Origin: Candidatus Latescibacterota bacterium
GTDB lineage: Bacteria; Latescibacterota; CBDEFO01
Assembly: GCA_965248755.1 (NCBI GenBank)
Contig: OZ252149.1
Span: 3,520,001 to 3,584,000 of the forward strand
Reading direction: 5' to 3'
Length of the DNA stretch: 64,000 bases
Made by a program: the position numbers and the translations under genes
Shown: positions 2,255-48,952 of the stretch, piece after piece
Numbering within the stretch: the first letter of the stretch is position 1
Layout of the letters: each line of letters opens with the position of its first letter
Notes under the pieces: model-generated
The model's database searches: none
Seen by the model: the letters and a program-made list of their open reading frames with translations, nothing else
Told to the model about the DNA's origin: nothing

Positions 2255-2543
2255 GGAAGTAGCCCCCGATAGATTCATTCGCGGGGTGGGCACCTCGTGC
2301 ACTGCTGCCACGCCTTTTTGATGGGGGACGAAGTGCCAGCAAACCGCGAAGCGGCGAAGTGGGCGAAGCAATCTGACTTAGGTTGCCTCTCCCTGTGTGT
2401 TGGCTACTATTTAGGATCCCTATAAACTTGTGCCTACTGTTTTGACGCGATACTTGGCTTTTACCTGAAGGGAGGGAACCCTGATGTCAAACTCCTTTAA
2501 TCACGGGCAGTCAGACCGTTTAATCTCCAATGGGGTGATAAAA

Positions 2544-4691
2544 ATGTCTTGGTGTGCAAGAATGGGTAGTATTTTATGTAAGCTGGCAGGGTTGATTCTG
2601 CTTGCTTTGATGGTCACCGCCATCTTTTTAGATGACGCCACCTGTGCGACTATCTACAGGATCGGAAAGCCCTTTTCGGATGCAGAAAGAACCAGTCTCG
2701 AGGGGATAGGGATTGAGGTCCAGCAGTTCAGCTGGGAAGTTTATGAGTCGGTGAAGAACCTGGATGCGGACTCTCTGAAGGCGGCACATGGCGGTTCAAT
2801 TGAACCCAAGTTTATCAGGGAGGGTGAGAGCATAGCCACAACGGCTCTGGACAGAGGAGGATGGATAGCCGAAGGTACCCAATCCGATGAGAGGCTAAGC
2901 TTCAAAGAGGGATATGAAATCGAAGGCAACGTTGCGAATAACATGATAGATGGGGATCCGACCACGGCTTTTGTGTGGCCTAGGCCGGCGCCCCCGGGTT
3001 GGAAAAGAGACGGCGCAAGATGTCATCATGCGCCTCACCGGATAGTTATTAACTTAGGCGGACAATTTGTCGTCGACAAAGTAAGATTCTACCCTCGTGA
3101 AGGAATATCCCCTGATGGTGAGGAATATAAGACTCGCTTCATAGAGGACTACCAATTGGGTACCAGTCAAGGCCGCAGGCCGCAGGATTTCTTCGAGACC
3201 TACTTGTGTCGAGGATCAGCTTTCATCCCGAGCTTCCGACAGTTTGGCAAGTACACTCACCCACCCGATCCTGACCAAACTGGAAATCCATCTGCCGTCA
3301 GGGAAGGCCATGAGGATGTTGAAAATATATTTACTGAAGTTATAATACCGCTTGATACTCCGGAGAAAATCTCTTATGTCGCGTTGTTGATCTGGCTCCC
3401 AATTGTGAAGACGATAGAGATCGCCGAGTTTGAGGTCTTTGGCCCGGAGAGCTTTATAGAAGAAGCCGCTTATATAGCTGACGTAATTGAGTTGGACGAC
3501 ATCGCCAGTTTCGGCGAGCTCACCTGGTCAGGGAGTCGTGATCCCAGGGCGGAGGCCAATATCCGAACCAGGAGCGGGACAGATCCTCAGCCGATTGTTT
3601 ACTGGATACTCAAAGGTCAGCTGCGAACGCAGGTAGTTTTGCCTTCGACCAATGAGGAAGGAGAAGAGCTCAGCTTAGAGGAGTACAGAAGTGCTTTCTA
3701 CAAACTCCCGGAAAATGTTTGGGCTGACTCGACTTACGATACGGAAAACTGGAGCTTCTGGTCTGCTCCTTACAAGTTTGAAAGTCCGGGAGCACCTATC
3801 GTCTCTCCTGGTCCCCGCAAATTCCTTCAGATCGGCGTGGATTTTGCCTCCGAAGTTAACGATGGCAGCCGGATCGAGTATTTACAGTTTAAGGCCTCTG
3901 TGCCTCCTGCGGCTCGAGAGATAGTAGGTGAGATCTTCCCTACAGAAGTCGAGATAGGGAAGGTAACACACAAGTTCAGCTATTTTGTCAAGGCAACGAT
4001 GACAGCTGTGGATAAAGGATTCGACACCTTGGAGATCACCACACCTTATGGGGTTAGTTCGGTCGATTCGCTAAGTGTAGATGGAATCAATCAGGACGGT
4101 TTCACCTGGGTGAAAAAGGCCGACGATTCTGGCTTTGAGGTCACATTACCCAGGAAGTTGGATACAGGAGACAGCGGAGTCATAGTTGAAGTGGTCTTCC
4201 AAGCTCCTGTTTTGAGGGAGCGCGGGACCTTTTTTGACGGCAGTGTGTTCGACAGCGCACAGCCTCACGAAGTTCATCAGAGGATCAAGCCTGGCAACGT
4301 TGCAGATGAGATCGAAAGCGATGTCCTTACGGTGATAACGTCTTTGGCCGAATCGATATTGTCCTCACCAGAGGTCTCTCCAAATCCCTTTACACCCAAT
4401 GGCGACGGTGTCAATGATGTACTGAACCTATCTTATACCATTTTGAGGCTGACGGCCCCTGTTCCTGTCTCAATCGATATATACGATCTTTCCGGTGCCT
4501 TCATAAAGAAAGTCTACTCTGGAAACGACAAAGTAGGGGTGTATTCAAAGGAGAATTCCAAGTCCCGGATTTGGGATGGAACAGACAGTGAGGATAATCT
4601 TGTTCCACCGGGGATATATGTCTATCGCATATCGGTAGAGGCTCAGGAAGAGGAGGAGACTAAGACCGGGACTGTATCTGTTGTCTATTAG
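2544..4691 (+). CDS. Secreted protein with signal peptide, discoidin-like region and C-terminal FlgD-Ig domain
   Basis: Hydrophobic N-terminus LAGLILLALMVTAIF; MIDGDPTT...INLGG...IAEFEVFG discoidin-like motifs; PNPFTPNGDGVND...WDGTD...PPGIY. Start placed after GGGGTGA (ORF track starts at 2484). Confidence 0.75.
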   Translation: MSWCARMGSILCKLAGLILLALMVTAIFLDDATCATIYRIGKPFSDAERTSLEGIGIEVQQFSWEVYESVKNLDADSLKAAHGGSIEPKFIREGESIATTALDRGGWIAEGTQSDERLSFKEGYEIEGNVANNMIDGDPTTAFVWPRPAPPGWKRDGARCHHAPHRIVINLGGQFVVDKVRFYPREGISPDGEEYKTRFIEDYQLGTSQGRRPQDFFETYLCRGSAFIPSFRQFGKYTHPPDPDQTGNPSAVREGHEDVENIFTEVIIPLDTPEKISYVALLIWLPIVKTIEIAEFEVFGPESFIEEAAYIADVIELDDIASFGELTWSGSRDPRAEANIRTRSGTDPQPIVYWILKGQLRTQVVLPSTNEEGEELSLEEYRSAFYKLPENVWADSTYDTENWSFWSAPYKFESPGAPIVSPGPRKFLQIGVDFASEVNDGSRIEYLQFKASVPPAAREIVGEIFPTEVEIGKVTHKFSYFVKATMTAVDKGFDTLEITTPYGVSSVDSLSVDGINQDGFTWVKKADDSGFEVTLPRKLDTGDSGVIVEVVFQAPVLRERGTFFDGSVFDSAQPHEVHQRIKPGNVADEIESDVLTVITSLAESILSSPEVSPNPFTPNGDGVNDVLNLSYTILRLTAPVPVSIDIYDLSGAFIKKVYSGNDKVGVYSKENSKSRIWDGTDSEDNLVPPGIYVYRISVEAQEEEETKTGTVSVVY

Positions 4692-4821
4692 TTAGATTAT
4701 TACCGAAATCAAGTGAAAGTTCCACCTTCGAAGTGATCAGAAATTCAGTTATTCGGAAGAGCAACGACATTAGCTTGCTCCCCTCTTTTGTTCCTCACCT
4801 CTTGGCACAAACAACTGGAAG

Positions 4822-4891
4822 TCCCAACCCTGGCGCTGTACCTGTGCTAAATTCGCTACGCTTCGCAGGCAGGTGAGCTTAGTTGTTATGT
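4822..4891 (+). other. attC-like integron cassette recombination site (isolated)
   Basis: CCCAAC-CCTGGCGCTGTACCTG...CAGGTGAGCTTAGTT-GTTATGT: AAC/GTT cores and imperfect inner boxes GCTGTACCTG/CAGGTGAGC with a bulged base. Confidence 0.5.
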
Positions 4892-5394
4892 GCCTCACTA
4901 CCGATAATGCCCCGTAATGTAGTCCCACTATTAGTGAACCCTCTACATTTTCAAGCCAATGATAATGTAAGCATCCAAGTATCATGTCAAAACAGTCTGG
5001 AGAGGAATCCAGAAGATTCAAGGACACATGCTGAGATTCATGAATGTACTGCATATCCTTGCAATGTGACAGGGACACATGCACTATAAAATTAGCAATG
5101 AAGAAGCAGTTTGATTCAAAGTGAAAAAGCAAGGTGTAAGCTGGAATGTGCCCAGATTTCGAAAAGATCAAGAAATAGAGAATTTCGAGAAACTCGTTCT
5201 GACCTGAAGGAGAAAATGTGCTGAAATCATTACCAGTTGTTTTTCGGTGTTGGTAGCACAAGCTGCCAAATTTTAATTATTGCTGTTTGTAAAAAGAAAC
5301 TGGAACCCTTGGATTGTGTCACAGGGAGAAATTCACACTGTTTCTGGCATCCCTCGTCAACGAATGAAAATGCAATGAATCCCCGGAGGACACG

Positions 5395-7040: not shown

Positions 7041-7084
7041 GGACATGGACAGCGACGGATTGATCCTGAGCATCCCGCAGAGAC

Positions 7085-9221: not shown

Positions 9222-10241
9222 ATGTCTAGCTATCCTTCTTATAAAGTAGCCGCAGCCCATGTGGCGCCAGTCTTTCTTGATCTGAAAGGCACGGTTGACA
9301 AAACGTGTTCCTTGATCAAAGAAGCCGCTCAGCAAGGTGCCGAGCTGATTGTCTTTCCCGAGGCATATCTTCCCGCCTTTCCGGTGTGGTGTGCGCTGCG
9401 ATCGCCGATATATAATCACGACTTGTTCCGTTGGTTGGCCGCAAACACTATCAGGATTCCCGGGCCGGAGCTGGCAGAAATTTCCAACACAGCCCGCGAG
9501 TGCGGTGTGTTCGTTTCCTTAGGATTTAACGAGGGCAACAGCATCAGCGTTGGATGTATCTGGAATGCCAACGTGTTGATCGGAGACGACGGCCATGTCC
9601 TCTGCCATCACCGCAAGATCGTACCGACCTTCTACGAAAAACTCATATGGGCACCGGGCGATGGCGGCGGTTTGCAAGTGGTCGAAACGCGCCTCGGCAG
9701 ATTGGGTATGCTGATCTGTGGCGAAAACACAAATCCCCTCGCCCGTTACACGCTTCTGGCTCAAGGTGAGCAATTGCATCTGTCAACCTACCCACCGGTA
9801 TGGCCCACCCACGATCCATCAACAGGCGGAAACTACGATTTCAAGCAGGCCATACAACTTCGCGCGGCAGCCCATTCATTTGAGGGGAAGGTGTTCAATG
9901 TTGTTGCTGCCGGCTATTTGGATAAGACCGGACAGGAGGAACTCATGGCGCTGGACCCGAATGCTGGACGCATACTCCATGAAAGCCCGCGAGGTATCTC
10001 GGTGGTAATGGGTCCTGATGGCCTTCCCATTAGCGATATAATGCAAGACACAGAAGGCATTCTTTACGCAGATATAGACCTGTCCGACTGTGTTGAGCCA
10101 AAGCAGTTCCACGATGTGGTCGGCGGCTACAATCGATTCGACATTTTCAAATTGACGGTGGATCGCTCGGCCCGCCGACCGATATCATTTGAGACGAAGA
10201 ACTTCAATGATGATCAACCGCCTGCGGCTGATCCCCAATAG
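9222..10241 (+). CDS. Nitrilase (carbon-nitrogen hydrolase family)
   Basis: Glu-Lys-Cys triad in FPEA, HHRKIVPT and LICGEN; C-terminal HDVVGGYNRFDIF. Confidence 0.92.
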   Translation: MSSYPSYKVAAAHVAPVFLDLKGTVDKTCSLIKEAAQQGAELIVFPEAYLPAFPVWCALRSPIYNHDLFRWLAANTIRIPGPELAEISNTARECGVFVSLGFNEGNSISVGCIWNANVLIGDDGHVLCHHRKIVPTFYEKLIWAPGDGGGLQVVETRLGRLGMLICGENTNPLARYTLLAQGEQLHLSTYPPVWPTHDPSTGGNYDFKQAIQLRAAAHSFEGKVFNVVAAGYLDKTGQEELMALDPNAGRILHESPRGISVVMGPDGLPISDIMQDTEGILYADIDLSDCVEPKQFHDVVGGYNRFDIFKLTVDRSARRPISFETKNFNDDQPPAADPQ

Positions 10242-10457
10242 ATGCACTTGGGGACTGGAAAGGGACGACACTCGTAATAGATATCTAAGAGCCATCCACT
10301 TCTATTTAGTCAAAGCGGGTGGGGAAGACTTATAGTGACGAACAAGAGAGCAGCAAAAACGAAAGGGGCAAATGGGAGTTTCCGTGACCTCTTGTTCTTT
10401 ATGGCACACCCAAAATTCACTGCAGCGGGGTAGATAAGCCAACAGACGGAGGGGCCT

Positions 10458-10852
10458 ATGCTTACTGAAAACCAGCTTGTTCAGTTTGAGGTCTTCGGCT
10501 TTGTCGTTCTGCGCGGGGTCCTTACCTGTGACGAGCTCAGGATCATAGATTCCGAGTTCGATATCGGCCTCGTCAGGGCCATAGAGGCTATGGACCGGCA
10601 CGGCATTCCCAAGCAGCTCAACTGGTCGAACCTGGGTCTAGATACGCCGTTCCTGGCCTCGCTACTGGAGGATCCCCGGTTCCTGGAGGCCACCGAGCAG
10701 CTCTACGGACAGGACGTGGTCGGCTATTACGCCAACTCCAACTCCTTCGACAGTGACCGTACCGAGTGGCATCCCGATACCTTCAACCTCGTCAGGCGCG
10801 GCGTGAAGTTCGCCTTCTACCTACAGCCGCTGGACGAGAAGACGGGCGCGCT
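10458..10852 (+). pseudogene. 3'-truncated duplicate of a phytanoyl-CoA dioxygenase family gene
   Basis: Near-identical to 13828-14222 up to KTGAL, then diverges into unrelated sequence; lacks the distal His. Confidence 0.8.
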
Positions 10853-11031
10853 ACGTACGGCTGAGCGCGAACAAACCCCTGAGATGGAAACACCTCAGCC
10901 TCTGGGGGGTGCAGTTCTGGGGACAGACGATCGAGGACAAATAGCCAAGGTGGGCAGGTCGCGCACGCTGTTTTTGAGAACAATGATCCTGTAATTGTCG
11001 ATGAAGAAACGTTAGCCCAGGAGAAATCAAA

Positions 11032-12132
11032 ATGCCTACAAGCTCTAGCGAGGAGAAGACCCGACACCTGGAAGTGCCCGAGTACACGGCCACCGGGGGA
11101 AGCGGCAAGTACACCGGTTTTAACTCGGTGAATCTTCAGGAGATCTACTTCGTCCAAAAGCAAGCGGCGGTCCGGTCGCAAATAAGCCCCCGTGGCGGGC
11201 ACAAGCCCTGCATGGCCCGCCTTCCCAGCGGTGACCTGCTGGCCACGCAGATTTTCAATGGCAGCATAGCCCTGTGCCGATCTAAGGATGATGGTTTCAG
11301 CTGGGGGCCGCCTCGTGAGGTGGTGGTGCCGGGAGGGAGGAGGCTTTCTGGGAGAGCTCCAATGTTTGCAGCGCTGGCGGATGGGACCTTGCTCCTGGGG
11401 AGCGGGACGATCTACCGCTCTACCGATGAGGGGCAAACCTGGCAGCAGTGTCAGGTCAACGGGTCCGTTACGGTGGCAGGCAAGACCTACAACATTGGCT
11501 GGGGTGAGAGCGACGGACCTCACCAGCTCTCGGACGGCACGGTCATCTGCAGTGGCTTAATCTCGCTGGCCCCGGGCAAATCGAAAGCGTATCTGCTTCG
11601 CTCGAAAGACGGGGGCCAGACCTGGGGTGACGCCTCCTACATCGCCGACGCCAGTGAGGTCAACATTGCCGTGCTGCCTGGCGACAAACTCTTTGCCTGC
11701 CTGAGGGTCGCAACTGCCGGGGCGGGAGAAGGCGGGGCTATCGTGGAAGTGACCAAGTCCAGCGATGACGGGCGCAGCTGGAGCCGGCCGCGCCGGATCG
11801 GCCTGGGCAAGGCCCAGATCCCTGGCTTCCCGCTATATCTCAAAGACGGCAGGCTCCTAATAATCTATGGCAATCGGCAGTTTCCTTTCGGGGCCCAGGC
11901 TATTGCCAGTCGAGATGGCGGCAAGACGTGGGATACCAAACATCCGATTATCCTGACCTGGTTCAGCTGGGACGATTATTGTGGCCATCCGCGAAGCCTG
12001 GTTCTTCCGGACGGTAGTATCATTACCGGCTACTACGCCAGAGTATTCAAGGAGAATCAAAGCCCCGACTCCGACATTGCAGGGCACTGTTTGCGTTGGC
12101 AGGTTCCTGACGATTGGCCACCGCTTCGGTAA
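11032..12132 (+). CDS. BNR/Asp-box (sialidase-like) beta-propeller protein
   Basis: Five Asp-boxes: SKDDGFSW, STDEGQTW, SKDGGQTW, SSDDGRSW, SRDGGKTW. Confidence 0.85.
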   Translation: MPTSSSEEKTRHLEVPEYTATGGSGKYTGFNSVNLQEIYFVQKQAAVRSQISPRGGHKPCMARLPSGDLLATQIFNGSIALCRSKDDGFSWGPPREVVVPGGRRLSGRAPMFAALADGTLLLGSGTIYRSTDEGQTWQQCQVNGSVTVAGKTYNIGWGESDGPHQLSDGTVICSGLISLAPGKSKAYLLRSKDGGQTWGDASYIADASEVNIAVLPGDKLFACLRVATAGAGEGGAIVEVTKSSDDGRSWSRPRRIGLGKAQIPGFPLYLKDGRLLIIYGNRQFPFGAQAIASRDGGKTWDTKHPIILTWFSWDDYCGHPRSLVLPDGSIITGYYARVFKENQSPDSDIAGHCLRWQVPDDWPPLR

Positions 12133-12271
12133 GGAACTCTCTCAACGGATAAAGAGACCTGGCTGGGACACCCACTTTCATAGATGGGAAATGTAGGACA
12201 AGAATTATAGTTAAAGAGGTCAAGAGCACAATGTCCAGAAGACTATTTTCAGACGACAAATTAGAGCATAT

Positions 12272-12453
12272 CATACCGCTTCCCTTGACAAGGTGACAGA
12301 TATTCTGCAAATTGGGGTTTGAGCCTTGTCCCCGAGTGATGCTATCGGGGAAAGGAGGTTAAGATGTCAAGCCCCGAGGTGGAAGATGGTAAGCGCTGGA
12401 CGGTGACTGATAAGGCAGATGTTGTGCTGACTCTTTTGGAAGGAGCGGGTTAA
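12272..12453 (+). mobile_element. Remnant left end of the IS3-family element at 31687, carrying a hairpin insertion
   Basis: CATACCGCTTCCCTTGACA...GCAAATTGGGGTTTGAG...GCCCCGAGGTGGAAGATGGTAAGCGCTGGACG aligns by eye with 31687-31835. Confidence 0.85.
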
Positions 12454-12638
12454 GACGAAAGCAAGTGATAATTCAAGAGGAAATTGCTATTTCGATTGAA
12501 AAAAGTAGTTGTTGAAAAATGTAAGAGTGGTTATACTCATTCACAAGCAAGATTGTATCGAAATATAATCCCTCATGAACGTGATATAGGGAAGGTGGGT
12601 TGCTTATTGCCCAAGGAGTTACATTAAAGGACACATAA

Positions 12639-13580
12639 TTGTCAGAGTCAGAACCCCACTCACAAATAGGAGAGACCGAATCCAAAGTCAAGACCGAAGC
12701 AATGCCGGTTGAAGGAGTGGATTTTAAGTCCGGGGCTGCGCTCATACTTCTAGCTCTGTTGTTGGGAGGGCACCCTGTGGCTATGAAATTCGGACTTAAG
12801 GGAACTCCCCCAATCGGCATGGGGGCAATAAGATTTGCCGGAGGAGCGATTTCCATAGCCTTGTGGGGCGCATTTACTGGTGAGCCCCTGAAGATGAAAA
12901 GGAACGAGGTCAGACCGATTCTATGGATAACTCTGCTCTTTACAGCTCATATCGTGACTCTAAATTGGGGAACCCACCTGACGACCGCAGCCCATTCGAC
13001 GGTCTTGATAAATACACAAACCTTCTTCGTATCTATCTTAGCCCACTTCCTGATTGCGGGAGATAGATTAAACGCAAAAAAACTCATCGGGATCGTCCTG
13101 TCCTTCTGCGGCGTGGCTTCCATCTTCAGGGGAAGCCTGGAACTGGGAGGGTCGAGAAACCTCTTAGGCGATTCCCTTGTTCTCGCAAGCGGGTTCCTTG
13201 TAGCGTGCAGGGTTGTGTTCGGCAAGAGGATAATGCAGTATGTGCATCTCTACAGGTTCCTGGCGTGGCAGATGATATTCGGCCTTATCGCCTTATCTCT
13301 TCTCAGCCTCTACACGGAGGGAATCGAAGGCTACAATTTTACTTCCACCGTTGTCCTTTCGCACTTGTACCAGGGCGTCATCGTAGCCGGGTTCTGCTTT
13401 GTGCTGTGGCACACTCTCTTGAAGCGCAAGAGTCCGAGCAAGATAGTAGTCTTCTTCTGTCTAACTCCCATATTTGGAGTGATCTTTAGCGCCCATTTTC
13501 TGTCAGAGAAGATAACGTGGGACCTTGCGGCTGGAGCGCTCTTAGTTGCGGCGGGAATGTACGTTGTGAACAAATCATAA
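12639..13580 (+). CDS. DMT/EamA family transporter
   Basis: About 10 hydrophobic segments in two EamA-like halves. Confidence 0.88.
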   Translation: MSESEPHSQIGETESKVKTEAMPVEGVDFKSGAALILLALLLGGHPVAMKFGLKGTPPIGMGAIRFAGGAISIALWGAFTGEPLKMKRNEVRPILWITLLFTAHIVTLNWGTHLTTAAHSTVLINTQTFFVSILAHFLIAGDRLNAKKLIGIVLSFCGVASIFRGSLELGGSRNLLGDSLVLASGFLVACRVVFGKRIMQYVHLYRFLAWQMIFGLIALSLLSLYTEGIEGYNFTSTVVLSHLYQGVIVAGFCFVLWHTLLKRKSPSKIVVFFCLTPIFGVIFSAHFLSEKITWDLAAGALLVAAGMYVVNKS

Positions 13581-13827
13581 GGGCAGCAGACAGGCCCCCG
13601 ATCGCCAATAGATTTACCTGGGGACTGGATAGGGACGACACTCGTAATAGAGATCTAAAAGCCATCCACTTCTATTCAGTCAAAGCGGGTGGGCAAGACT
13701 TATAGTGACGAACAAGAGAGCAGCAAAAACGAAAGGGGCAAATGGGAGTTTCCGTGACCTCTTGTTCTTTATGGCACACCGAACATTCAGTCCAGCGGGG
13801 TAGATAATCCAACAGACGGAGGAGTCA

Positions 13828-14643
13828 ATGCTTACGGAAAATCAGCTTGTTCAGTTTGAGGTCTTCGGCTTTGTCGTTCTGCGCGGGGTCCTTACCTATG
13901 CCGACCTCAGGATCATAGAATCCGAGTTCGATATCGGCCTCGTCAGGGCCAGAGAGGCCATGGGCCGGCACGGTATCCGCAAGCAGCTCAACTGGTCGAA
14001 CCTGGGTCCAGATACGCCGTTCCTGGCCTCTCTACAGGAGGATCCCCGGTTCCTGGAGGCCACCGAGCAGTTCTACGGACCGGACGTGGTCGGCTATTAC
14101 GCCAACTCCAACTCCTTCGACAGTGACCGTACGGAGTGGCATCCCGATACCTTCAACCTCGTCCAGCGTGGCGTGAAGTTCGCCTTCTACCTACAGCCGC
14201 TAGACGAGAAGACAGGCGCGCTCCGGTTCATACCCGGCTCTCACAAAGATTCCCTCCACTCAGACATCAAGAAGGTCACCCTGAAAGAGTCCAATGAGGG
14301 GGTCATCGAGGGGGGTGGCGTTGAGGTCGACGCGATGCCTGCGTACGTTGCGAGGTCGCAGCCTGGAGACGTGGTCGCCTTCGACAACCGGATCTGGCAC
14401 GCCAGCTGGGGAGGCGGCAGCGACCGGAAGATGTGCAGCCTCGGTTATTTTGCCGCTCCGGCAACGCCAGAAGAAGAGGAGTCGATGCAGGAGATGGTCG
14501 AGCAAGAGGCCCGCCTGGTCGAGGTGTTTCCGCTGCTCAAGCCCCACCGCGACTGGATTTCCAACCCCGACCGCAGCCCGGGTCGCCAGCGCTGGATAGA
14601 CAGCCTCAGGCATTGGGGCTTCGTCGGTTCCATCGGAGGCTGA
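13828..14643 (+). CDS. Phytanoyl-CoA dioxygenase (PhyH) family Fe/2OG enzyme
   Basis: FEVFGFVVLRGVL N-terminus, WHPD (HxD), GALRFIPGSH, PGDVVAFD..IWHAS. Confidence 0.88.
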   Translation: MLTENQLVQFEVFGFVVLRGVLTYADLRIIESEFDIGLVRAREAMGRHGIRKQLNWSNLGPDTPFLASLQEDPRFLEATEQFYGPDVVGYYANSNSFDSDRTEWHPDTFNLVQRGVKFAFYLQPLDEKTGALRFIPGSHKDSLHSDIKKVTLKESNEGVIEGGGVEVDAMPAYVARSQPGDVVAFDNRIWHASWGGGSDRKMCSLGYFAAPATPEEEESMQEMVEQEARLVEVFPLLKPHRDWISNPDRSPGRQRWIDSLRHWGFVGSIGG

Positions 14644-19343: not shown

Positions 19344-19565
19344 CTCTTTGATGCGGTTCTGCGCTTTACGAGGGCTTATTGGCATATACCGGGAGCCGCT
19401 TGATGCCCGAGCGCGAGGACTCGGAGGTCTGGGGAGTTGGCCCGGAAGACGGATTCTTCGTCCCGATGTCAATTGATTAGATTCGCAAGATCTACAAGAT
19501 CAGCGTCCAGAATACGCTCCTGCGGAATAATTCCTATCAGCGGTTTACCCAACAAGGAGGCCAAA

Positions 19566-20492
19566 ATGATGAACGAGCTCGAGGAGTGGGGTATGGTGTC
19601 CGATCGCCGACGTTTCCTGAAGGTTTCTGTTGCGTCCCTTATCGGGGCTGGGCTGAGTAGGTCTGAGGGCGCATCGGCGCAGGAAGCGCCGGAGGACGTA
19701 GCCCCGGCTGTTGAGCCCTTCAGCTTCTGCGCGCTTGCAGATCCGCACTGTGTCGATCCGGCTACGGGTAGATACAGGGAGGGGATAGAGAGGTTAGGGA
19801 ACGGCGTGGAGAAATTCTTCAGGTGCGACCGGGAAATGGCGAAATTGGAGGGGATAGACAGGCCTGACTTCATGCTCGTCGCCGGTGATATCCATCTGTG
19901 GGCGCTCCGAGACCGTCTGGATGAGGTGGAGATTCCGATGCACGTGATCGCTGGAAACCACGAGTCCGGCTGCGAGAAGAAGGAGATACGCGACCTCTTC
20001 CCCGGCGACTTCAAGAAGGATGGCAGGGAATCTGACTACTACTCCTTCGTACACAAGGGAGTGCGGTTCATCGGCGTCTGTGATGCCGGCGGGGGCGGGG
20101 ACCACGTCGGCCATCTGTGCGCGGAGGACTTCGGGCCCCGGGGGCAGTGCGAATGGCTGGAAGGAGAGTTGGGCCAGAAGGAGCGGGAAAAGATCATCTT
20201 CGCTCACATCCCTCCACATCCAGAAGGACTGGACGTCAACATGTACATGTCACGCAACGATTCGCGGTACTTCAACCAACTCATTCAGAAAACGCAGCCG
20301 ACCGCCATGTTCTTTGGGCACCATCACAGGGCCACAGACGAACACAAGATCGGCCGAACGCGGAGCTTTATAATGCGATCGTCCTGCTGGAATGCCGCCC
20401 GGGCTACCATCGGCTTCATGCACGTGAGCGTGACGCCGACGGGCATCGTCACCCGGGAGATCGACACAGGAGTGTATGAACCCCAACGTTGA
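19566..20492 (+). CDS. Tat-exported calcineurin-like metallophosphoesterase, copy 1
   Basis: SDRRRFLK Tat motif; ADPH, AGD, GNHE, AHIP and GHHH motifs; AAGGAGG RBS. Confidence 0.88.
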   Translation: MMNELEEWGMVSDRRRFLKVSVASLIGAGLSRSEGASAQEAPEDVAPAVEPFSFCALADPHCVDPATGRYREGIERLGNGVEKFFRCDREMAKLEGIDRPDFMLVAGDIHLWALRDRLDEVEIPMHVIAGNHESGCEKKEIRDLFPGDFKKDGRESDYYSFVHKGVRFIGVCDAGGGGDHVGHLCAEDFGPRGQCEWLEGELGQKEREKIIFAHIPPHPEGLDVNMYMSRNDSRYFNQLIQKTQPTAMFFGHHHRATDEHKIGRTRSFIMRSSCWNAARATIGFMHVSVTPTGIVTREIDTGVYEPQR

Positions 20493-20695
20493 AAAAAGCT
20501 AATCAATCTCTACCTGCGCGTTAAGAGCCGCCATGTGCCGCGGTAGAAATGACATCACATATTTGCTCGCGCTGGCTATTAGAGTGAGCTTGCCTTGAGG
20601 TCGCGTCGGGTGTCTTGACGAATAGTTTCGGATGTGATCAAAGCGGTTATGGCGGAATGATTCCTATCAGCGGCTCACCTAACGAGGAGGCCAAA

Positions 20696-21622
20696 ATGAT
20701 GAACGAGCTCGAAGAGTGGGGCATGATGTCCGATCGCCGACGTTTCCTGAAGGTTTCTGTTGCGTCCCTTATCGGGGCTGGGCTGAGGAGGGCTGAGGGT
20801 GCATCGGCGACGGAAGCGCCGGAGGACGTAGCTCCGGCTGTTGAGCCCTTCAGCTTCTGCGTGCTTGCAGATCCGCACTGTGTCGATCCGGCTACGGGTA
20901 GATACAGAGAAGGGATAGAGAGGTTAGGGGACGGCGTTGAGAAATTCCTCAGGTGCGACCGGGAGATGGCAAAATTGGAGGGGTTAGACAGGCCTGACTT
21001 CATGCTCCTCGCCGGTGATATCCATCTGTGGGCGCTCCGAGACCGTCTGGATGAGGTGGAGATTCCGATGCACGTGATCGCCGGAAACCACGAGGACCGC
21101 TGCATGAAGAAGGAGATGCGCGAACTCTTCCCCGGCGACTTCAAGAAGGATGGCAAGGAATCCGACTACTACTCCTTCGTACACAAGGGAGTGCGGTTCA
21201 TCGGTGTCTGTGATGCCGGTGGGGGCGGAGACCACGTCGGCCACCTGTGCTCGGAGGACTTCGGGCCCCGGGGGCAGTGCGAATGGCTGGAAGGAGAGTT
21301 GGGCCAGAAGGAGCGGGAAAAGATCATCTTCGCTCACATCCCTCCACATCCAGAAGGACTGGACGTCAACATGTACATGTCGCGCAACGATTCGCGGTAC
21401 TTCAACCCACTCATTCAGAAAACGCAGCCGACCGCCATGTTCTTTGGGCACCATCACAGGGCCACGGACGAACGCAAGATCGGCCGAACGCGAAGCTTTA
21501 TACTGCGATCATCCTGTTGGAATGACGCCCGGGCTGCCATCGGCTTCATGCACGTGAGCGTGACGCGGACGGGCATCGTCACCCGGGAGATAGACACAGG
21601 AGTGTATGAACCCCAACGTTGA
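20696..21622 (+). CDS. Tat-exported calcineurin-like metallophosphoesterase, copy 2
   Basis: Tandem paralog of 19566-20492 with the same motifs. Confidence 0.88.
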   Translation: MMNELEEWGMMSDRRRFLKVSVASLIGAGLRRAEGASATEAPEDVAPAVEPFSFCVLADPHCVDPATGRYREGIERLGDGVEKFLRCDREMAKLEGLDRPDFMLLAGDIHLWALRDRLDEVEIPMHVIAGNHEDRCMKKEMRELFPGDFKKDGKESDYYSFVHKGVRFIGVCDAGGGGDHVGHLCSEDFGPRGQCEWLEGELGQKEREKIIFAHIPPHPEGLDVNMYMSRNDSRYFNPLIQKTQPTAMFFGHHHRATDERKIGRTRSFILRSSCWNDARAAIGFMHVSVTRTGIVTREIDTGVYEPQR

Positions 21623-21923
21623 CCCCCGATTAAATCGGGGGTTGAAAAAGGCTAATTACTAGCTACCTGCGCGTTAAGAGCCGCCATGTACCGCGGTAGA
21701 AATGGCATCACATATTTGCTCGCACTGGCTATTAGAGTGCGCAAACCTTGAGGTCGCGTCGGATGCCTTGACGAATAGTTTCGGATGTGACGGAAGCGGT
21801 TATGCTCGCCTCCGTCCCTTGGGTACGGACGTGCACCTTCCCACGGACGGACACAGGCTGGCTGTCAAAATCGCGCGGGTGGCAGCAGTTAGCGAAAACC
21901 TGACGATCCACTGCACAATTTCA

Positions 21924-21952: not shown

Positions 21953-22444
21953 CCCTCCTAATTGGGGTGTACCGTACGCAGCTCTCCAATCCAGTAGAGC
22001 CTCCGTAGAAATATTTAGCAAGAGAATAGCGTAGCGGTGTGGTGGCATTGACAGAAGTTGTCACAATTAGATCGTATGTCTGTCAGTTGGTACGCATTTA
22101 GCAAAATCCACGTTAGGCAAGCTGCTCCAGTGAGAGGATAAGCATATAACAGAGAATTCTTGTTACTGCAATTGTTTCTACTTTCATTATCCTATCACTC
22201 GGTTCCAGCTACGCTCAAGGACGATCCGCTGGGCTAAATGTTGGTATTTCATTGCGTTGACGTATTGCTCATAATTAAGTTTACTTAAACGAAAGTGAAC
22301 TGATTAGGATTAGTTTTTCCAGATGCTCCAGAAATTGTATGGAGTATCTCTGGCAAGGAAACTTTTGTTGAAATTGTCCTTTTGCTTAGAATGTCACCTT
22401 TAACCACCGCGCAAAGAGAAAACCATCGAAAGGAGAAAACAAAG

Positions 22445-23632: not shown

Positions 23633-23807
23633 GAGGAAGCCGGGATAGTGCCAACATCTGATTCTACTGACAGGGTTATATCCAGCCATGACCTGTGGGG
23701 ATATGCGTTGCCTGAGCGTGGTTACGCCGGAGCGTCCACGATCCTCTTGGAGAGGTTGAGAGCAAAATTAGGGCGATATAACCTACCATCGAAAGGAGAA
23801 AACAGAG

Positions 23808-27740: not shown

Positions 27741-27868
27741 TCAGGCAAGTTATTATCGGTTAATACCCCCACGTTCTACATGGGGGTTCTTTACTTAGGT
27801 AAGGACATTTCAGGAGAGGGGAACTGCCGCATTTGCTAACTAGCAAGTAATAGGGTTTCATGGCATCC

Positions 27869-27895
27869 CTGGATTCCCGTTTCCACGGGAATGAC
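27869..27895 (-). repeat. REP-like palindrome GTCATTCCCGTGGAAACGGGAATCCAG
   Basis: Hairpin ATTCCCG-TGGAAA-CGGGAAT of the widespread GTCATTCCCG type. Confidence 0.75.
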
Positions 27896-28021
27896 ATTAA
27901 TTCATGAAATTGTTGCGCTTCCTGAAATTGAGGGGACTTCTTTCTCATCTCCTCAAACATCTCCAGGTTTTCCACATCTTCTATCCGCTCTAACATCTCT
28001 CTGTGCTCACGTATATGACAC

Positions 28022-33126: not shown

Positions 33127-34380
33127 TCATCTCTGGAATAGTTGTAATACCGATCGTGGGATGATATTAGCTTGAGCGAGTACGGCCGTGGATGTCTGCT
33201 GTAATATCTGCAACTTGGTGGATTCCAGCTGCTCTAACGCCATGTCGGCATCCAGAATCCTGCTCTTGGCTGCTTCTGTGTTCGTCTCTGCACTTGACAA
33301 TGAGTCTTCTTTGAACATCAGTTTGTTGGTAATTGCCCCAATGAAGCTCAGTCCCTTGGAGACGTTGTCTATGGCTGTGTCAATCTTCTGGATGAATGCT
33401 GACGCTTGGGCGTTGGAGCTTACTGTGTTTCCTCTGGGAGTGTACTGGACTCCGAAGGATGTAGGGTCATCAGTGGAGTTTACATCTGAGAAGCGTAGTT
33501 TAAATCCGACACCCAGATCGATGGTGGCGCTTGCGCCCGGCTTGTTTGGTCCCGGTGGTGATGGTATTTCCTTGTCGATCACAACGGTTATAGTGGTATC
33601 TGTGTCTGAGCCTGTGCCGTCTCCATCGTTATCAATCGAGACTATATTGCCCGACGAATCTCTTATCCTGAACGTAAGATCCCCTTTCCCAGCAGAATTA
33701 ACGTCAATGTCTGTCACTTCCACTGTGTAGAATCCTGCCTTAAGTTCACTTAAGGCATCGTTCCGCGCTGTGGACGTGGCCAAAGATACATCGATTCGTC
33801 CGGGATTGTAGGTCGTTGATACAGAAGCTGTCACTGCGCCTACATCCACATCGAGCTGTGCGGATGTGTATCCTGTCGTGTATCCCACAGCAGACGATGT
33901 AAGATCGAACGTTATCGTATCGACAGTGCCTGCTCCCACCTGGAAGTTAAACGCGCTGGTCGTGGTTTTCAAAATCTCGATATTGTTGAACAGAGCCTGT
34001 TCCACCTGATCGTCAATCTCTGCGGCCAACTGCTCGATCTCGCTCTTTAGGGCCTGCCGTTCCTAAGCTCCCAGCGTGTCGTTCGCAGCCTGGTTCGCCT
34101 TGGCTTTTATCTGTCCCAGGATGTCGCTGATGGTCTGGAGGTGTCCTTCGGCGACGGCCATAAGGTTTTTGGCGTCGCCTATACTGTTGAGTGCGACACC
34201 CAGACCTTCTGATCTTACCTTCAACTTGGTAGCCAAAGATAGTCCTGCAGCGTCGTCGGCAGCGGTGTTGATCCTTTTGCCCGTGGCGAGTCTGGCCTGA
34301 TGGGTGTCCAGGCTCTTGTTGATTTTGCTAAGAGCATTTGCGGCGTCCAGAGCTTCTATGTTAGAATTTATCCGCGTCAT
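33127..34380 (-). pseudogene. fliC: Flagellin interrupted by one in-frame TAG (34063-34065)
   Basis: N-terminal RINSNI...RLATGKRINTAADDAAGL; reads DTLGA*ERQALKSEIEQLAAEID in one frame; C-terminal SRILDADMA...ILQQ...LAQAN. Confidence 0.9.
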
Positions 34381-34521: not shown

Positions 34522-34929
34522 ATGAAAAGTGGATCTTAAAGCACCGCATAATCTCGCAATTTAAGTAGATCATTGCACTCTCCTAGTACGAAGAGCACCA
34601 ATGTCTCTGTATCTTTTATCAGCATCTTGTAGGCAACCTTTTGAGAAAAGTAGACAGGGCATCTCACCCTCTTCCTTGAGATTGCTTCCCCCTGATGGAT
34701 TCAATCGGGGGCGCCCATAATGACATTGTGTGGTTTGTTGTCTTCAGTAAATGCGAGGGACACTCGTCTTGAAGCCATCTTGCTGCCAGTAGTCGGAGAG
34801 GACTGGCGATACCCCGTTGCTATATACTTTTTTGGACTTGACACAAAAGATAAAAAAGCTTAGGTTTGATTGAGGCAATTTGCAAAGTAACTGGTCATCT
34901 GATAATACCCTAAATGCAAGGACACTACT

Positions 34930-38783: not shown

Positions 38784-38808
38784 GCAGGGATGGGAGATAG
38801 TCTGATGG

Positions 38809-38947
38809 TGATTGCTTGGCAGACCCTTCGCTTCGCTCTGGGCTAAAGGCTCTAGGCTGCCCCGATGGATTCAATCGTGGGCTCGCAATGACTCTACTCT
38901 GCTTCGATCCTTAGTCAGTGCGAGGGGCAAAGCCCCGAAGCAATCTG
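38809..38947. repeat. Composite intergenic element: GATTGCTT...CTCGCAATGAC REP-like unit containing a CCCCGAT hairpin, then an inverted GTCAGTGCGAG...GAAGCAATC unit
   Basis: Related units at about 2345-2392, 32980-33070, 34678-34724, 40143-40187, 42661-42729, 43600-43665 and 63729-63776. Confidence 0.7.
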
Positions 38948-39001: not shown

Positions 39002-40078
39002 ATGGAGGCTGAAAAGACAAAAGATAGTGTGCCGGATGGGGATGGGCTGGTAGAGGTCATAGAGAATATCAGACAGGAGGCGATCAAGGAACTTGAATCG
39101 TGCTCTGATCCAAACGAATTGGAGCAGATCAGGATCAAGTATCTGGGAAGGAAAAGCGGGCAACTAACCAGGATGTCAAGAGGAATAGGCTCACTGTCTC
39201 CCCAGCTTCGCAAAGATGTGGGCAAAGCCGCCGGACTGGCTCAAAATGAGATAACCCGCAGGATAGATGCGATAATTGCCAAGATAGAGAAGGGGGCCAA
39301 GGAATTCCAGGAGGCTGTGGATATAACCCTTCCCGGAAGAAGAAAAACGCTCGGAAAGAGGCATCCTCTGACAGTGGTCACAGACCGGATTGTTCAGATA
39401 TTTACGAGTATGGGCTTTTCGGTTGCAGATGGACCCGAGGTGGAGACCGAGTACTACAACTTCGACGCTTTGAACACACCCCCGGATCACCCCGCACGGG
39501 ATACCAGAGATACGTTCTACATCTTGTCCCCGATTGAATCTACGGGGGATCTTCTGCTTCGAACCGAGACCTCGCCGGTGCAGATACGGGTGATGGAAAA
39601 GACATCTCCCCCCGTTCGAATAATCTCCCCTGGAAGGGTCTATCGGAAGGATACGTCAGACGCCACGCACCATTTCATCTTCCATCAGGTGGAAGGTCTA
39701 TACGTGGACAACGATGTGACGTTTGGAGACCTCAAGGGCGTCATATCGGTCTTTGCAAGGAAGATACTCGGCGAAGATGTGAAGGTAAGATTCCGCCCGC
39801 ACTTCTTTCCGTTCACAGAGCCGAGCGCAGAATATGACTTTTCGTGTGTCCTATGCGATTTGAAGGGATGCAGTGTCTGCAAAGGCACCGGCTGGATTGA
39901 GATTGCAGGATGCGGGATGGTGGATCCTGAGGTGTTCAGAGCCGTAGGCTACGACCCCGAGGTATGGACGGGCTACGCATTCGGGATGGGAATCGAAAGG
40001 GTAGCTATGGTCAAGTATGGCATTGACGACATAAGACTCTTTTTGGAAAGTGACTTGCGCTTTATCTCTCAATTCTAA
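39002..40078 (+). CDS. pheS: Phenylalanine--tRNA ligase alpha subunit
   Basis: NFDALNTPPDHPARD, LLRTETSPVQ, PGRVYR, FHQVEG, FPFTEPS, GYAFGMGIER. Confidence 0.97.
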   Translation: MEAEKTKDSVPDGDGLVEVIENIRQEAIKELESCSDPNELEQIRIKYLGRKSGQLTRMSRGIGSLSPQLRKDVGKAAGLAQNEITRRIDAIIAKIEKGAKEFQEAVDITLPGRRKTLGKRHPLTVVTDRIVQIFTSMGFSVADGPEVETEYYNFDALNTPPDHPARDTRDTFYILSPIESTGDLLLRTETSPVQIRVMEKTSPPVRIISPGRVYRKDTSDATHHFIFHQVEGLYVDNDVTFGDLKGVISVFARKILGEDVKVRFRPHFFPFTEPSAEYDFSCVLCDLKGCSVCKGTGWIEIAGCGMVDPEVFRAVGYDPEVWTGYAFGMGIERVAMVKYGIDDIRLFLESDLRFISQF

Positions 40079-40217
40079 GTTGCGCCTATGAGTCTGCCTA
40101 CGAGTCTGGCACCCTGTAGTCAGTCAAGGCAAAAGCAAGTAACGTCATGGCGACCTCCGATCTAATCGGGGGCAGCGAAGCAATCTCCGCTAGATTCATT
40201 CGGGGACGATTCTGTCT

Positions 40218-43079: not shown

Positions 43080-43371
43080 AGAGGCGACAGTAGTAAAAAT
43101 ATTCGGAACTGATTATCCTATCCAAGTGAAGGCAGACCCGGAATACGTAAAGTCGGTGGCCCGCTACGTTGACAATAAGATGAGGCAAGCGGCAAAGGAT
43201 ATTCCGGTGCACTCCGCAATGAAGGCGGCTATAGTTGCAGCCTTAAACCTGGCAGATGAACTGTTCAAAGAAAGAGGAGAGGGAGAATCTGTACTATTGG
43301 ATTTAGATGACAGGGTCAAGAAACTTTCCCATCTTTTGGAGGGAGAGTTGACGCAGATTAGTAGACAGTAA
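43069..43371 (+). CDS. zapA: Cell division protein ZapA
   Basis: VKIFGTDYPI, VARYVDNKM, AALNLADE. Confidence 0.92.
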   Translation: MQDKEATVVKIFGTDYPIQVKADPEYVKSVARYVDNKMRQAAKDIPVHSAMKAAIVAALNLADELFKERGEGESVLLDLDDRVKKLSHLLEGELTQISRQ

Positions 43372-43677
43372 TAGACAGACGATAGGCCCCAATTGTCCCC
43401 GATTGCTTCTACCCCCGATTGAATCTATCGGGGGGGATCTGGGGTCGGGGGTAGACAAGCGCCTCCTCCCATCCCTTCAGATTGGTTCTGGTTCCGCCTC
43501 TCGTCTCCTTCGGGGTCGCAACGCCAGACGGCGTCAGGCTTTGCCTCTCTCAATGGCACTCAAGGCAAAAGCAAGCAATACCAAAGGCCATCGCAACTTC
43601 GTTGTGAGGCGGTGTGGCCCCTTTCCTGGGCTGGAAGCTAGCCACGAAGTGGGCCAAGCAGTCTCCCGTAGAGTGTC

Positions 43678-43882
43678 TCTTCCTGTAATTTGTCCACACA
43701 CCTCGGCTCTTTAGATGGAACGCCTCCAAAGAATTCCACCAACATAATATATGGGTTCTAGAATCCCCGCCGCGTGTCTAAGGATCAGGAGGCTCCTTTT
43801 GAAAGTCAAAACACGGTTTAGCCACTGTTCCCCAAAGATTCCTTCGATGCTTCTGGGGAGAGTATAACGCGGTACAGGGGAA
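43678..43882 (+). ncRNA. ssrS: 6S RNA candidate
   Basis: About 200-nt region between zapA and rny, a usual ssrS position; ends pair (TCTTCCTGTA / TACAGGGGAA) and are followed by a T-run. Confidence 0.55.
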
Positions 43883-43912
43883 TTTTTGTTTATAGACAGA
43901 GAGGAAATAAAG

Positions 43913-45484: not shown

Positions 45485-45672
45485 TTATGCTCGCAAATTA
45501 GATGACTGAAGGCAGGCAAAAGCAGTAAACAGCATACAGGACAGCCCCACCTCTCCCCAACTACTGTCTACGAGATTGTTTCCCCCCGACCCCTGATTGA
45601 ATCTATCAGGGGCTCAATCGGGGACAAGGGAGGGGAGGTGGTACCCCTGTGTACTTTTTTTGGAGCATTCTT

Positions 45673-46464
45673 TTGAGGATACTTTTCATTGGGGATATTT
45701 ACGCAAGGCCCGGGAGAAGGGCGGTGTCGGAGCTCCTCCCGAAGATTAGGGAGAATAAGGAGATCGACTTTTGCATAGCCAACGGAGAGAACACAGCGGG
45801 AGGATTCGGGATTACGGAGAATATCGCAAGAAAACTCTATTCGTACGGCGTGGACGTGATCACGAGCGGAAATCACGTCTGGCACAGGAAGGAGTCCCGA
45901 GAATACATACAAAACGCTGTCTGTCTCCTGCGCCCCGCTAACTATCCGCCTGAGGCAGGAGGTGTGGGCTATGGAGTATTCGAATCTGCAGGTGGAATCC
46001 CGGTAGGGGTGCTCAACCTCCAAGGCAGGACATTTATGACGCACATCGATTGTCCATTTCGACTCGGAAGACAAAAGATCGAACAGTTAAAGGAATCGGC
46101 TCTGGTAATAATAGTCGATTTTCACGGAGAGGCTACATCCGAAAAGATCGCCTTTGGATGGTACACAGACGGCCATGCCAGCGCTGTGGTCGGCACTCAC
46201 ACGCACGTCCAGACCGCCGATGAGAGGATACTCCCCGGTGGGACAGCTTATATAACAGACGTGGGTATGACCGGTCCCCACGACTCTGTGATCGGAGCGC
46301 AGAAGGATATAGCAATAAGGAGATTCCTGACCGGTCTGCCGGAAAGGTTCGAACCCGCAGAGGCGGACATTAAGTTCTGCGCTGTGCTTTTGGACATAGA
46401 CGAAAGCACGGGCAAAGCTGAGAGCATCGAAAGGATAAGGCTGGATGTTGAACTGGTCGAATGA
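45673..46464 (+). CDS. ymdB: YmdB / TIGR00282 metallophosphoesterase
   Basis: ILFIGD, NGEN..GG, TSGNH, RPANYP, DFHGEATSEK, GTHTHVQTAD. Confidence 0.92.
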   Translation: MRILFIGDIYARPGRRAVSELLPKIRENKEIDFCIANGENTAGGFGITENIARKLYSYGVDVITSGNHVWHRKESREYIQNAVCLLRPANYPPEAGGVGYGVFESAGGIPVGVLNLQGRTFMTHIDCPFRLGRQKIEQLKESALVIIVDFHGEATSEKIAFGWYTDGHASAVVGTHTHVQTADERILPGGTAYITDVGMTGPHDSVIGAQKDIAIRRFLTGLPERFEPAEADIKFCAVLLDIDESTGKAESIERIRLDVELVE

Positions 46465-47683: not shown

Positions 47684-47915
47684 AGAAAAGTTTGAGGATA
47701 AGCTGCGACGATTAGAACAGATAGTAGAGAAGTTAGAGGGCGGAGAAATCACCTCAAGCGAAGATATTTCCTTGGAAGATTCCCTAGAGATGTTCGAGGA
47801 GGGAGTCAGGATCTCAAAGGAATGTGCGGCGATCCTGGGCAAGGTGAAAAAGAGGATTCAGAAGTTAACAAAGGACGAAGATGGCGCCTTCAAATTAGAG
47901 GAACTCGATGATTAA
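47676..47915 (+). CDS. xseB: Exodeoxyribonuclease VII small subunit
   Basis: FEDKLRRLEQIVEKLE...LEDSLEMFEEG. Confidence 0.92.
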   Translation: MPEEKFEDKLRRLEQIVEKLEGGEITSSEDISLEDSLEMFEEGVRISKECAAILGKVKKRIQKLTKDEDGAFKLEELDD

Positions 47916-48816
47916 GGAGATAGGCATATTCGGCATCCCATCTGATCTGAGGGAAAGTGTCCGCCCCAGGGTGGAAAGTGTCATAAGGGAATTTATAAGG
48001 ATAGCGGAACAGGAAGGCCTTGAACTTTACGCAGTTGACGACCTGAAAGAAACTGTGGATCGGTTCAAAGCGTCCGCTGTAGAGGGCAGGTTACTGCCCA
48101 AGGACGATCTGGCCGAAAGTGTCGATGTGGTGGTGTCGTTTGGGGGAGATGGAACTATCTTGAAGGCAGCTGAGGCTGTCGGAGATTCAGGTGTGCCGAT
48201 ATTGGGAGTCAATTTAGGGAGATTGGGATTTCTGGCCGGTGTATCTCCCAAGAATCTGGAGGAGGGCGTAAGAGAGCTTAAAGCAGGCAAGTTCACAGTG
48301 GACAGGAGGATGGTGCTCTCGGCCGGGATTGAGGGCGAGGAGAAAAGGTTCTTTGCCCTCAACGACGTGGTGGTGGAGAAAGGATCATGCGCCAGGATCT
48401 TGGAGATCGAAATGTACATAAACGACGAGATGGTGGCGTCTTACATGGGAAATGGAGTGGTGGTATCGAGTCCAACAGGATCGACGGCTTATTCGCTGTC
48501 TGCGGGTGGACCTATAGTGCACCCCGGGATGGAGGCCATCATAGCCTCTCCGATATGTCCTCATTCTCTGTCCCTGAGGAGCATGGTAGTTCCAGAAGAT
48601 GAGGTGATCACTGTCCGGCTTAAGGCACAGAAGGGCGATGATGTGATGCTTACTGTTGACAGCCGCACGGCAGGAGATCTGGAACCTGACAGCAGAGTGG
48701 TTGTAAGTAAGGCTCCCTTTTCGATCAATTTGATGAACTTGAGCGGCCTATCGTTCTACTCTCTTCTGCGAGAGAAATTGGGATGGGGAATAGGCTATAC
48801 AGTAGACAGACAGTAG
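47908..48816 (+). CDS. nadK: NAD(+) kinase
   Basis: GGDGT, GVNLGRLGFL, ALND, SPTGSTAYSLSAGGP. Confidence 0.95.
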   Translation: MIKEIGIFGIPSDLRESVRPRVESVIREFIRIAEQEGLELYAVDDLKETVDRFKASAVEGRLLPKDDLAESVDVVVSFGGDGTILKAAEAVGDSGVPILGVNLGRLGFLAGVSPKNLEEGVRELKAGKFTVDRRMVLSAGIEGEEKRFFALNDVVVEKGSCARILEIEMYINDEMVASYMGNGVVVSSPTGSTAYSLSAGGPIVHPGMEAIIASPICPHSLSLRSMVVPEDEVITVRLKAQKGDDVMLTVDSRTAGDLEPDSRVVVSKAPFSINLMNLSGLSFYSLLREKLGWGIGYTVDRQ

Positions 48817-48907
48817 CCCCCGATAGATTCAATCGGGGGTAGACAGGGACCACCCTCCTCCCTGCCCCATATGCGGTAGATACCATATCAAGAAATGGTA
48901 CTAAAAT

Positions 48908-48952
48908 CCAGTCCCCGATCCCCAATTGATACTATTGGGGATCGGGGACTGG
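48908..48952. repeat. Perfect 19-bp-stem palindrome made of two nested CCCC(G/A)AT hairpins
   Basis: CCAGTCCCCGAT-CCCCAAT-TGATACT-ATTGGGG-ATCGGGGACTGG. Confidence 0.9.

Follow-up and report, generated by a model that had tools for sequence, protein, structure and literature searches.

The window analysed here, a whole 64,000-nucleotide stretch of a Candidatus Latescibacterota bacterium (contig OZ252149.1, positions 3,520,001 to 3,584,000), carries at 14 places a short hairpin that stands alone, nested in itself, within other repeats or within a coding sequence. The unit is a 23-bp hairpin of the form Y-CCCCGATAGATTCAATCGGGG-R, with an 8-bp stem and a 7-base loop, and a 19-bp short form is also present. 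The original prediction had listed 14 coordinates for a unit of about 20 bp; all 14 hold a copy or a worn or nested copy, and a fuzzy search recovered 13 of them within 9 bases. As it had been written, the motif describes a family present at all 14 sites but matches exactly at only three (21624, 43413 and 48818), and the TGATACT loop counted among its variants is a one-off worn loop at 48920. The copies are given below together with an empty target and a gene stub, where G000 denotes this genome (4.54 Mb, 98% complete), G001 a genome of the same genus (4.6 Mb, 96% complete), and SRM the NTS-type repeats that accompany Ssn nucleases of the GIY-YIG family.

2263..2285 (+), 23-mer with two mismatches; a further copy is nested here in G001
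10232..10254 (+), worn 23-mer of the A6/T18 compensatory subfamily; also in G001
12325..12351 (−), 27-base form, an SRM-like loop variant with a CAAG tail, in a multicopy repeat segment; missing at the G001 place, while 17 G000 copies have the empty allele
13596..13624 (+), nested copy in degenerate form, a paralogue of 10232; not recovered by the fuzzy search
20489..20492 (+), TTGA target without an insert, from the paralogue of 21619-21645
21619..21645 (+), short form of 19 bp (21623-21641) with a TTGA direct repeat on each side; net +23 against the paralogue
27844..27896 (−), SRM/NTS-type arm with a truncated stub (five initial codons) of an ssn-like GIY-YIG gene; the arm is a different hairpin
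34689..34711 (+), 23-mer within an SRM (GTCATTGCG-type) repeat
38859..38881 (+), 23-mer within an SRM repeat arm; also in G001
39527..39549 (−), in-frame 23-mer within pheS, giving six more residues (net +18) than in three relatives
40154..40172 (−), 19-bp short form within an SRM repeat
40184..40206 (+), worn 23-mer; G001, as well as contigs from runs X4 and X5, has a copy nested in it (net +19, at window 40190)
43412..43434 (−), exact 23-mer in the middle of a cluster with several nested copies; single copy in G001
45590..45612 (−), 23-mer showing a compensatory change, which sits in an older copy that is itself inside an SRM arm
48817..48839 (+), exact 23-mer within a GTAGACA heptamer run; also in G001
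48912..48948 (−), nested pair with the inner worn copy at 48919-48941

The size of the unit was set at 23 bp, rather than about 20, because the bases just outside the CCCCGATAGATTCAATCGGGG core covary, being T..A in 250 and C..G in 159 of 530 places. The DNA fold energy of the 23-mer is -7.5 to -8.0 kcal/mol, and its loop is conserved at six of seven positions. Compensatory stem changes, also proposed earlier, are confined to two of the eight stem pairs (pair 1/23, 170 vs 38 expected; pair 6/18, 32 vs 1.7), where they mark subfamilies and not independent events. A 27-base form, in which SRM-like loop variants carry a CAGG or CAAG (CARG) tail, is inserted as a block and has 53 copies in G000; it may be an intermediate between the SRM arm and the solo hairpin. 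The sequence next to the 23-mer is variable, without the conserved GTCA tag of NTS/SRM repeats, and GTAG is among the commonest left flanks only within heptamer runs (10/44), so that it is not a terminal tag either. GTAGACA heptamer runs also bracket a broken four-helix-bundle gene elsewhere in G000 (2579539-2579850 (−)).

Counting over the whole genome bore out the abundance expected from the window: the hairpin is the most abundant short word family of G000. There are 105 exact copies of CCCCGATAGATTCAATCGGGG and 530 places with three mismatches or fewer, against none in an order-5 Markov genome, and 262 strict hairpins, against two in the same control. With looser limits 612 places were found (572 of the long form and 40 of the short form), of which 584 have distinct flanks. 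Copies stand at 5.4 per 10 kb in the space between genes and at 0.46 within the open reading frame (ORF) set; their density is 6.3 per 10 kb between convergent genes vs 3.6 between divergent genes. Among intergenic copies, 30% adjoin an SRM motif, compared with 4.7% of random intergenic places, hitchhiking copies being included in the former. As the original prediction had noted, there is no T tail, a T run standing beside the stem in only 11 and 10 of the 612 on the two sides; neither this feature nor the sense placement after stop codons expected of an intrinsic terminator was found, and copies between tandem genes show no sense bias (165 vs 154) that would follow transcription. A search of the window against Rfam gave two tRNAs alone, with no match at 43300-43900.

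Empty orthologous sites, which had been proposed as a check, were sought in G001, for which 2.8 Mb of the 4.6 Mb in tiles plus 23 loci were compared at about 95-97% identity. Flanks could be matched at 542 sites, of which 407 were resolved and 135 not; 225 are equal in length between the two genomes, with shared copies counted twice. This gave 52 filled/empty pairs, a few of which are paralogues of insertion sequences (ISs) and not true orthologues. The 49 pairs involving 23-mers have net differences of +18 (10), +19 (20), +20 (7), +21 (3), +25 (1), +26 (1) and +27 (7), and the three involving 19-mers of +15 (2) and +18 (1). Excluded from these pairs were the +12 class (9 events), which is the collapse of nested copies, the +13, +17 and +29-and-above classes, three 23-mer +15 events and one 19-mer +12 event. 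About 33 lineage-specific gains were seen in G001 vs 19 in G000, a difference too weak to be credited to the intact ssn gene of G001 described below.

The modal outcome is the replacement of four target bases by the element (net +19 for the 23-mer, 20/49). The junction reads purine, element, pyrimidine around a 4-base target, of which TCGA is the commonest; the tetramers replaced in 22 modal events include TCGA four times and TCTA and TAGA twice each. TAGA/TCTA is a single site that the element itself carries, and this accounts for the nesting of the hairpin in itself that had been described for the window and was confirmed here, as was its nesting in other repeats. At a matching TCGA target, where the target equals the element's own ends, the net +19 reads as a clean 19-base insertion at TC^GA. 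Targeting to hairpin loops was considered and rejected as a general rule, as it holds for nested events (13/19) and not for other sites (5/26 vs 45/156 controls).

Target duplication, whose length the earlier proposal had wished to define, does exist at 4 bp but is a minority outcome. In G000, exact 4-bp direct repeats surround 15 of 198 non-repeat 23-mers, where 2.2 would be expected, with no case at 5 bp; in loci of the Desulfobacterota type the count is 7 of 33 against an expected 1.1, so that the constant duplication of a MITE (a miniature transposable element with inverted repeats) is not seen, and replacement remains modal. The +27 class is itself mixed, with one or two true duplications, two events with a CAGG tail, and others that are tandem or nested. 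Within the window, the presence/absence between paralogues reported earlier is confirmed by the empty TTGA at 20489 and the TTGA-19mer-TTGA arrangement at 21619-21645.

Since TCGA could be the footprint of a deletion, the polarity of the events was tested. High conservation might suggest a fixed functional site, such as a protein-binding site or a terminator, kept by selection and lost by hairpin deletion in the empty alleles, and deleting the inner 19 bases would also leave TCGA. Where polarity is readable, however, the empty allele is ancestral. The multicopy sequences entered by three G001 insertions at TC^GA have the empty allele in 89, 31 and 5 copies vs one filled copy each, which rules out deletion footprints at these sites, and one of the three insertions breaks a 466-aa transposase frame; an IS3-type element in G000 has 55 empty vs 15 filled copies. 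Copies that break a transposase gene or nest in themselves, the lack of a T tail or an orientation bias, the higher density between convergent than between divergent genes and the hairpin's absence from all 39 other genomes of the phylum that were searched likewise speak against a fixed site, a reading that is already largely refuted and that we regard as highly improbable. The filled alleles are insertions at new sites, and the hairpin is almost certainly mobile. This upholds the earlier view of a non-autonomous mobile element near the minimal size, through the 52 filled/empty pairs, the polarised insertions and a consistent junction signature, but not the duplication as its usual mark.

Entry into coding sequence, another feature of the original prediction, is exemplified by PheS, which has exactly six extra residues compared with all three relatives examined (G003, G005 and G008), and this too reads as a gain. 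In all, 56 of the 612 copies lie inside ORFs of at least 250 aa. Here 19-mers, for which the −4 outcome (+15) stays in frame, are enriched (12/40 vs 44/572, p=8e-5), and 19 of the 20 +19 events fall outside long ORFs; frame-keeping outcomes survive in genes. The hairpin is in this way a steady source of 5-9 residue protein insertions, including that in pheS, and of transposase frameshifts.

Copies also ride in IS3 and SRM-dimer repeats. One SRM-dimer repeat family is filled in 13 of 30 G000 copies and 19 of 22 G001 copies, nearly all at one junction and with both loop orientations. Three repeat copies in orthologous positions are filled in only one of the two genomes, and their junction is that of the paralogues. 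These switches point to gene conversion. The SRM-dimer repeat of ~130 bp (G001 C8 688582-688663 and relatives) is itself present or absent, 11 of 25 G001 copies having no orthologous counterpart. Bursts of ISs by lineage were also observed, with 86 IS3-type copies in G000 vs 7 in the part of G001 read, and 9 copies of a DDE element vs 80.

Such junctions could in principle arise from the host alone, if single-stranded DNA fragments with the hairpin annealed at forks or gaps by microhomology and the hairpin was looped out, in the manner of template switching or of SPDIR as described in the available part of 10.1101/2024.07.02.601687, with no dedicated enzyme and with spread in repeats by ordinary gene conversion. 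The replacement-type junctions, the favoured target TCGA that equals the element's own terminal 2+2 bases, the recurrence of composite units with the same junction in both loop orientations and the lack of any cognate enzyme found would all fit this explanation, which we nevertheless consider unlikely.

A transposase or integrase acting in trans, either of the DDE type with a 4-base stagger or of the HUH/Y1 type, might instead move the hairpin as a minimal MITE or REP. The symmetric target preference, the 4-bp duplication class, the IS-rich genome and the resemblance of the 27-base CARG-tailed form to a tagged single-strand unit are in keeping with this, and Y1 genes are present in all four Desulfobacterota-type carriers searched. 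No match to Y1_Tnp/RAYT (PF01797) was found in G000 or G001, however, which are the genomes with most copies, and most events delete rather than duplicate. The ends of the resident IS1380, IS3 and IS256-like elements differ from the hairpin, no resident IS end matches it and the ends of multicopy IS families diverge beyond a C run, while IS1380 makes 5-bp AT-rich duplications. The two-ended synapse of DDE transpososomes needs more than 23 bp, for which the hairpin is too short. No hairpin-gene-hairpin cassette was found, the bracketed ORFs being ordinary genes or IS scraps as read by eye, nor any enzyme gene bracketed by the hairpin, as had been suggested. We give a trans-acting transposase a low probability.

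Target-primed reverse transcription (TPRT) of a hairpin RNA, with the position of the second nick giving a 4-base deletion or duplication, seems quite improbable. Plus and minus outcomes are typical of TPRT, and G000 has two reverse transcriptase (RT) genes; both look like defence-type enzymes, one is cut by an IS3 copy and neither has a hairpin array beside it. The ends of the hairpin are exact, without truncation or tails, and the lack of sense bias between tandem genes also argues against an RNA route, which has been proposed for the GC clusters of yeast mitochondria in the part of PMC4478555 available. The two genes are a retron-like RT with an upstream partner gene, the one cut by IS3 (G000 3731484-3733370 (−)), and a stand-alone RT (3677787-3679310 (−)).

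The distribution of the hairpin is patchy, with letter-identical copies across two phyla. Among 41 genomes of the phylum searched, it occurs only in G000 and G001 (293 and 313 matches with one mismatch at most). A scan of species genomes gave at least 76 loci; among the matches listed, 65 are in a record titled Ca. Latescibacterota, eight are in Deltaproteobacteria and one each is in a Thermodesulfobacteriota, an archaeal and a Dysgonomonas record. Four of the genomes listed hold 8-54 matches with up to two mismatches (some counted on both strands), and the archaeal genome holds one. A further four of 400 genomes of the Desulfobacterota-type phylum match, and no exact hairpin was found in viral contigs.

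In the Desulfobacterota-type loci, the same hairpin followed by an unpaired base and a TGAC end (the GTCA tag) forms arms of the SRM/NTS type, for which the NTS consensus used in the comparison was taken from the available passages of PMC11893778. The 23-mer shares 20-21 of 23 bases with the common SRM arm types, with intermediates among the solos, though the search pattern for the arms was itself derived from the element (no control matches), so that this likeness is partly by construction. At least 122 loci with tagged arms in many loop variants were found in a metagenome scan, with full flanks for 80, and in two of the loci listed the arms bracket an intact GIY-YIG gene of 94-106 aa that is 62-66% like that of G001; in locus L319 the arm stands 15 bases before the start of such a gene. 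Tagged arms occur in four of five solo-bearing genomes vs 11 of 120 sampled others, kin not being independent. Because the arm is more widespread and diverse, it is likely, from these sequence comparisons, to be the parent of the solo hairpin, and descent of the 23-mer from the core of an SRM (CGTC) repeat, through loss of the GTCA tag and perfection of the stem, appears probable. Loci of the other phylum (L327 and L386 vs L338, L229 and L246) form a filled/empty pair, in which a 23-mer replaces three bases between two SRM arms.

G001 carries one intact Ssn-like gene between SRM arms (L217:1444-1767 (−)), in a duplicated segment beside a tsaC-like gene, which was not found in G000. G000 has instead six 5′ stubs of the ssn cassette, each an SRM arm with about five codons (window 27844-27896 (−), 1272113, 1852135, 2714209, 2979198 and 3031452), which all end at about the same codon and four of which share the start of the downstream sequence; six similar stubs lie in the part of G001 read. 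The original prediction had seen no candidate enzyme in the window, but the trace of one, an ssn-like stub with its arm, does lie there.

The reading we tentatively favour is that the hairpin is a non-autonomous micro-element that would travel as single-stranded DNA, freed or bound by a Ssn-family GIY-YIG nuclease (lost from G000, intact in G001). The target may either open with a stagger of four bases or be invaded by way of the two terminal bases at each side, and host gap repair would then trim (minus 4, net +19) or fill (plus 4, net +27). For this whole chain, with Ssn as the mover, we put the chance at somewhat below even. A bolder version, that Ssn-family nucleases move hairpins of 19-27 bases, and that the 23-mer is a tag-less escapee of the SRM arm, a hyperparasite that overwrites a 4-base staggered target by cut-and-repair and homes via SRM repeats as filled copies convert empty ones, is doubtful. 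If true, it would make the hairpin a selfish element of nearly minimal size, found across phyla, that transposes by a chemistry so far undescribed.

Several observations weigh against Ssn as the mover, besides the partly constructed likeness of the arms. The ssn gene of G001 has a different arm from the 23-mer, G000 has no intact small GIY-YIG gene but only UvrC, and the tagged arm form is absent from G000 and from the 2.8 Mb of G001 read. No ssn match was obtained with the query used in G041, G044 and G207, nor by Pfam in G041-G044, and G063 and G352 have small GIY-YIG genes with flanks of another kind. In the metagenome scan, no GIY-YIG start had a solo hairpin directly upstream. The idea that copies insert at the Ssn cut zone was rejected, since the 12 upstream copies all lie more than 23 bases from the GTCA tag (SsnA cuts within that distance) and 124 lie inside or beyond the arm, and the solo lacks the three upstream bases needed for SsnA cleavage. 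In the passages of PMC11893778 available, Ssn is shown to cut and not to transpose. Replication-strand bias is absent (272 of 524 on the leading strand), and a central CG is present in only 8 of 22 replaced tetramers. Ku, searched for in five genomes, was found in none.

Two small non-Ssn GIY-YIG genes were noted in G352 (L400 and L401), one between imperfect palindromes of another family and one between queA and tgt. A tiny GIY-YIG cassette lodged in tRNA genes was also tried and set aside, since 7 of 48 tRNA/tmRNA genes have a copy in the range searched and none has a GIY-YIG gene.

Repeats of similar size that look mobile have been described before (SDRs, REPs and MUSE1), and the comparisons that follow rest on the available parts of the papers cited. 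Like the NTS/SRM repeats of Ssn nucleases, including dRS3 (Chenal et al. 2025, PMC11893778), the 23-mer is an imperfect hairpin of conserved sequence in hundreds of copies; a near-identical hairpin forms tagged arms around ssn-like genes, and untagged cores make up about half of the dRS3 copies. Unlike them it has no GTCA tag and a longer loop, inserts into SRMs, itself and genes, and shows mobility with a junction rule, where PMC11893778 reports cleavage and gives mobility as a hypothesis. The SDRs of Nostocaceae (PMC4390886, PMC2884548) are mobile-looking modules of about 20 bases, of which SDR5 inserts precisely in the palindromic site HIP1, with the mover unknown. The 23-mer shares their dispersal, precise insertion and size of about 20-27 bases; it differs in phylum, and neither four-base overwriting nor a link to Ssn repeats appears in the passages of those two papers, although the original description of SDR may bear on this.

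CGTC- and GTAG-tagged REPs, REPINs and Rickettsia palindromic elements (RPEs) are likewise 20-40 bp palindromes of patchy occurrence with in-frame copies in genes, including those of tRNA synthetases (PMC3733652, PMC3116915), and the six-residue insertion in a working pheS resembles those of RPEs; CGTC REPs "lack a dedicated transposase" (PMC3733652). In contrast to REPs and REPINs, the 23-mer has no terminal tag, no head-to-head dimers and no RAYT in the genome, and it parasitises CGTC-type repeats. SMR-A and SMR-B of Haloquadratum (PMC3119063) are also transposase-less, make no target duplication and insert into the palindromes of other elements by an 'enigmatic' mechanism, but are archaeal and, at 80-110 bp, four to five times longer. 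Yeast GC42 clusters (PMC4478555) and Podospora MUSE1 (PMC1864894) share the very short palindromic or fixed sequence, presence/absence among strains and co-conversion of flanks; unlike the 23-mer they are mitochondrial, GC42 has an AG duplication, and intron-encoded enzymes are the suspected movers. On the features tested, the 23-mer works like an SDR or SMR-A and, with its probable derivation from SRM, is itself neither an SRM, a REP nor a MITE. No published description of this hairpin family was found in the literature searched, where the coverage of subscription papers is limited.

It has long been asked how repeats of ~20 bases multiply in bacteria, CGTC REPs, SDRs and SMRs being cases without a known mover. 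The present analysis adds the junction rule and the link to SRM repeats. With dozens of sites seen both before and after insertion, a defined target rule by which four bases are either replaced or duplicated, and cassettes of a candidate enzyme family (L319, L375 and L217), the hairpin family makes the question testable in vitro.

Other features of the window include three recent tandem paralogue pairs, encoding a metallophosphoesterase (19437-21622), a BNR-repeat protein (22382-25031) and a PhyH-like protein (10458-14643), the last with one truncated copy. A flagellin-like gene (33127-34380 (−)) is split in two ORFs, an N-terminal one of 105 aa and a C-terminal one of 300 aa, and the alignment with G001 breaks here. 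A CAP12/Pycsar-type TIR domain protein is encoded amid housekeeping genes at 56133-57092 (+).

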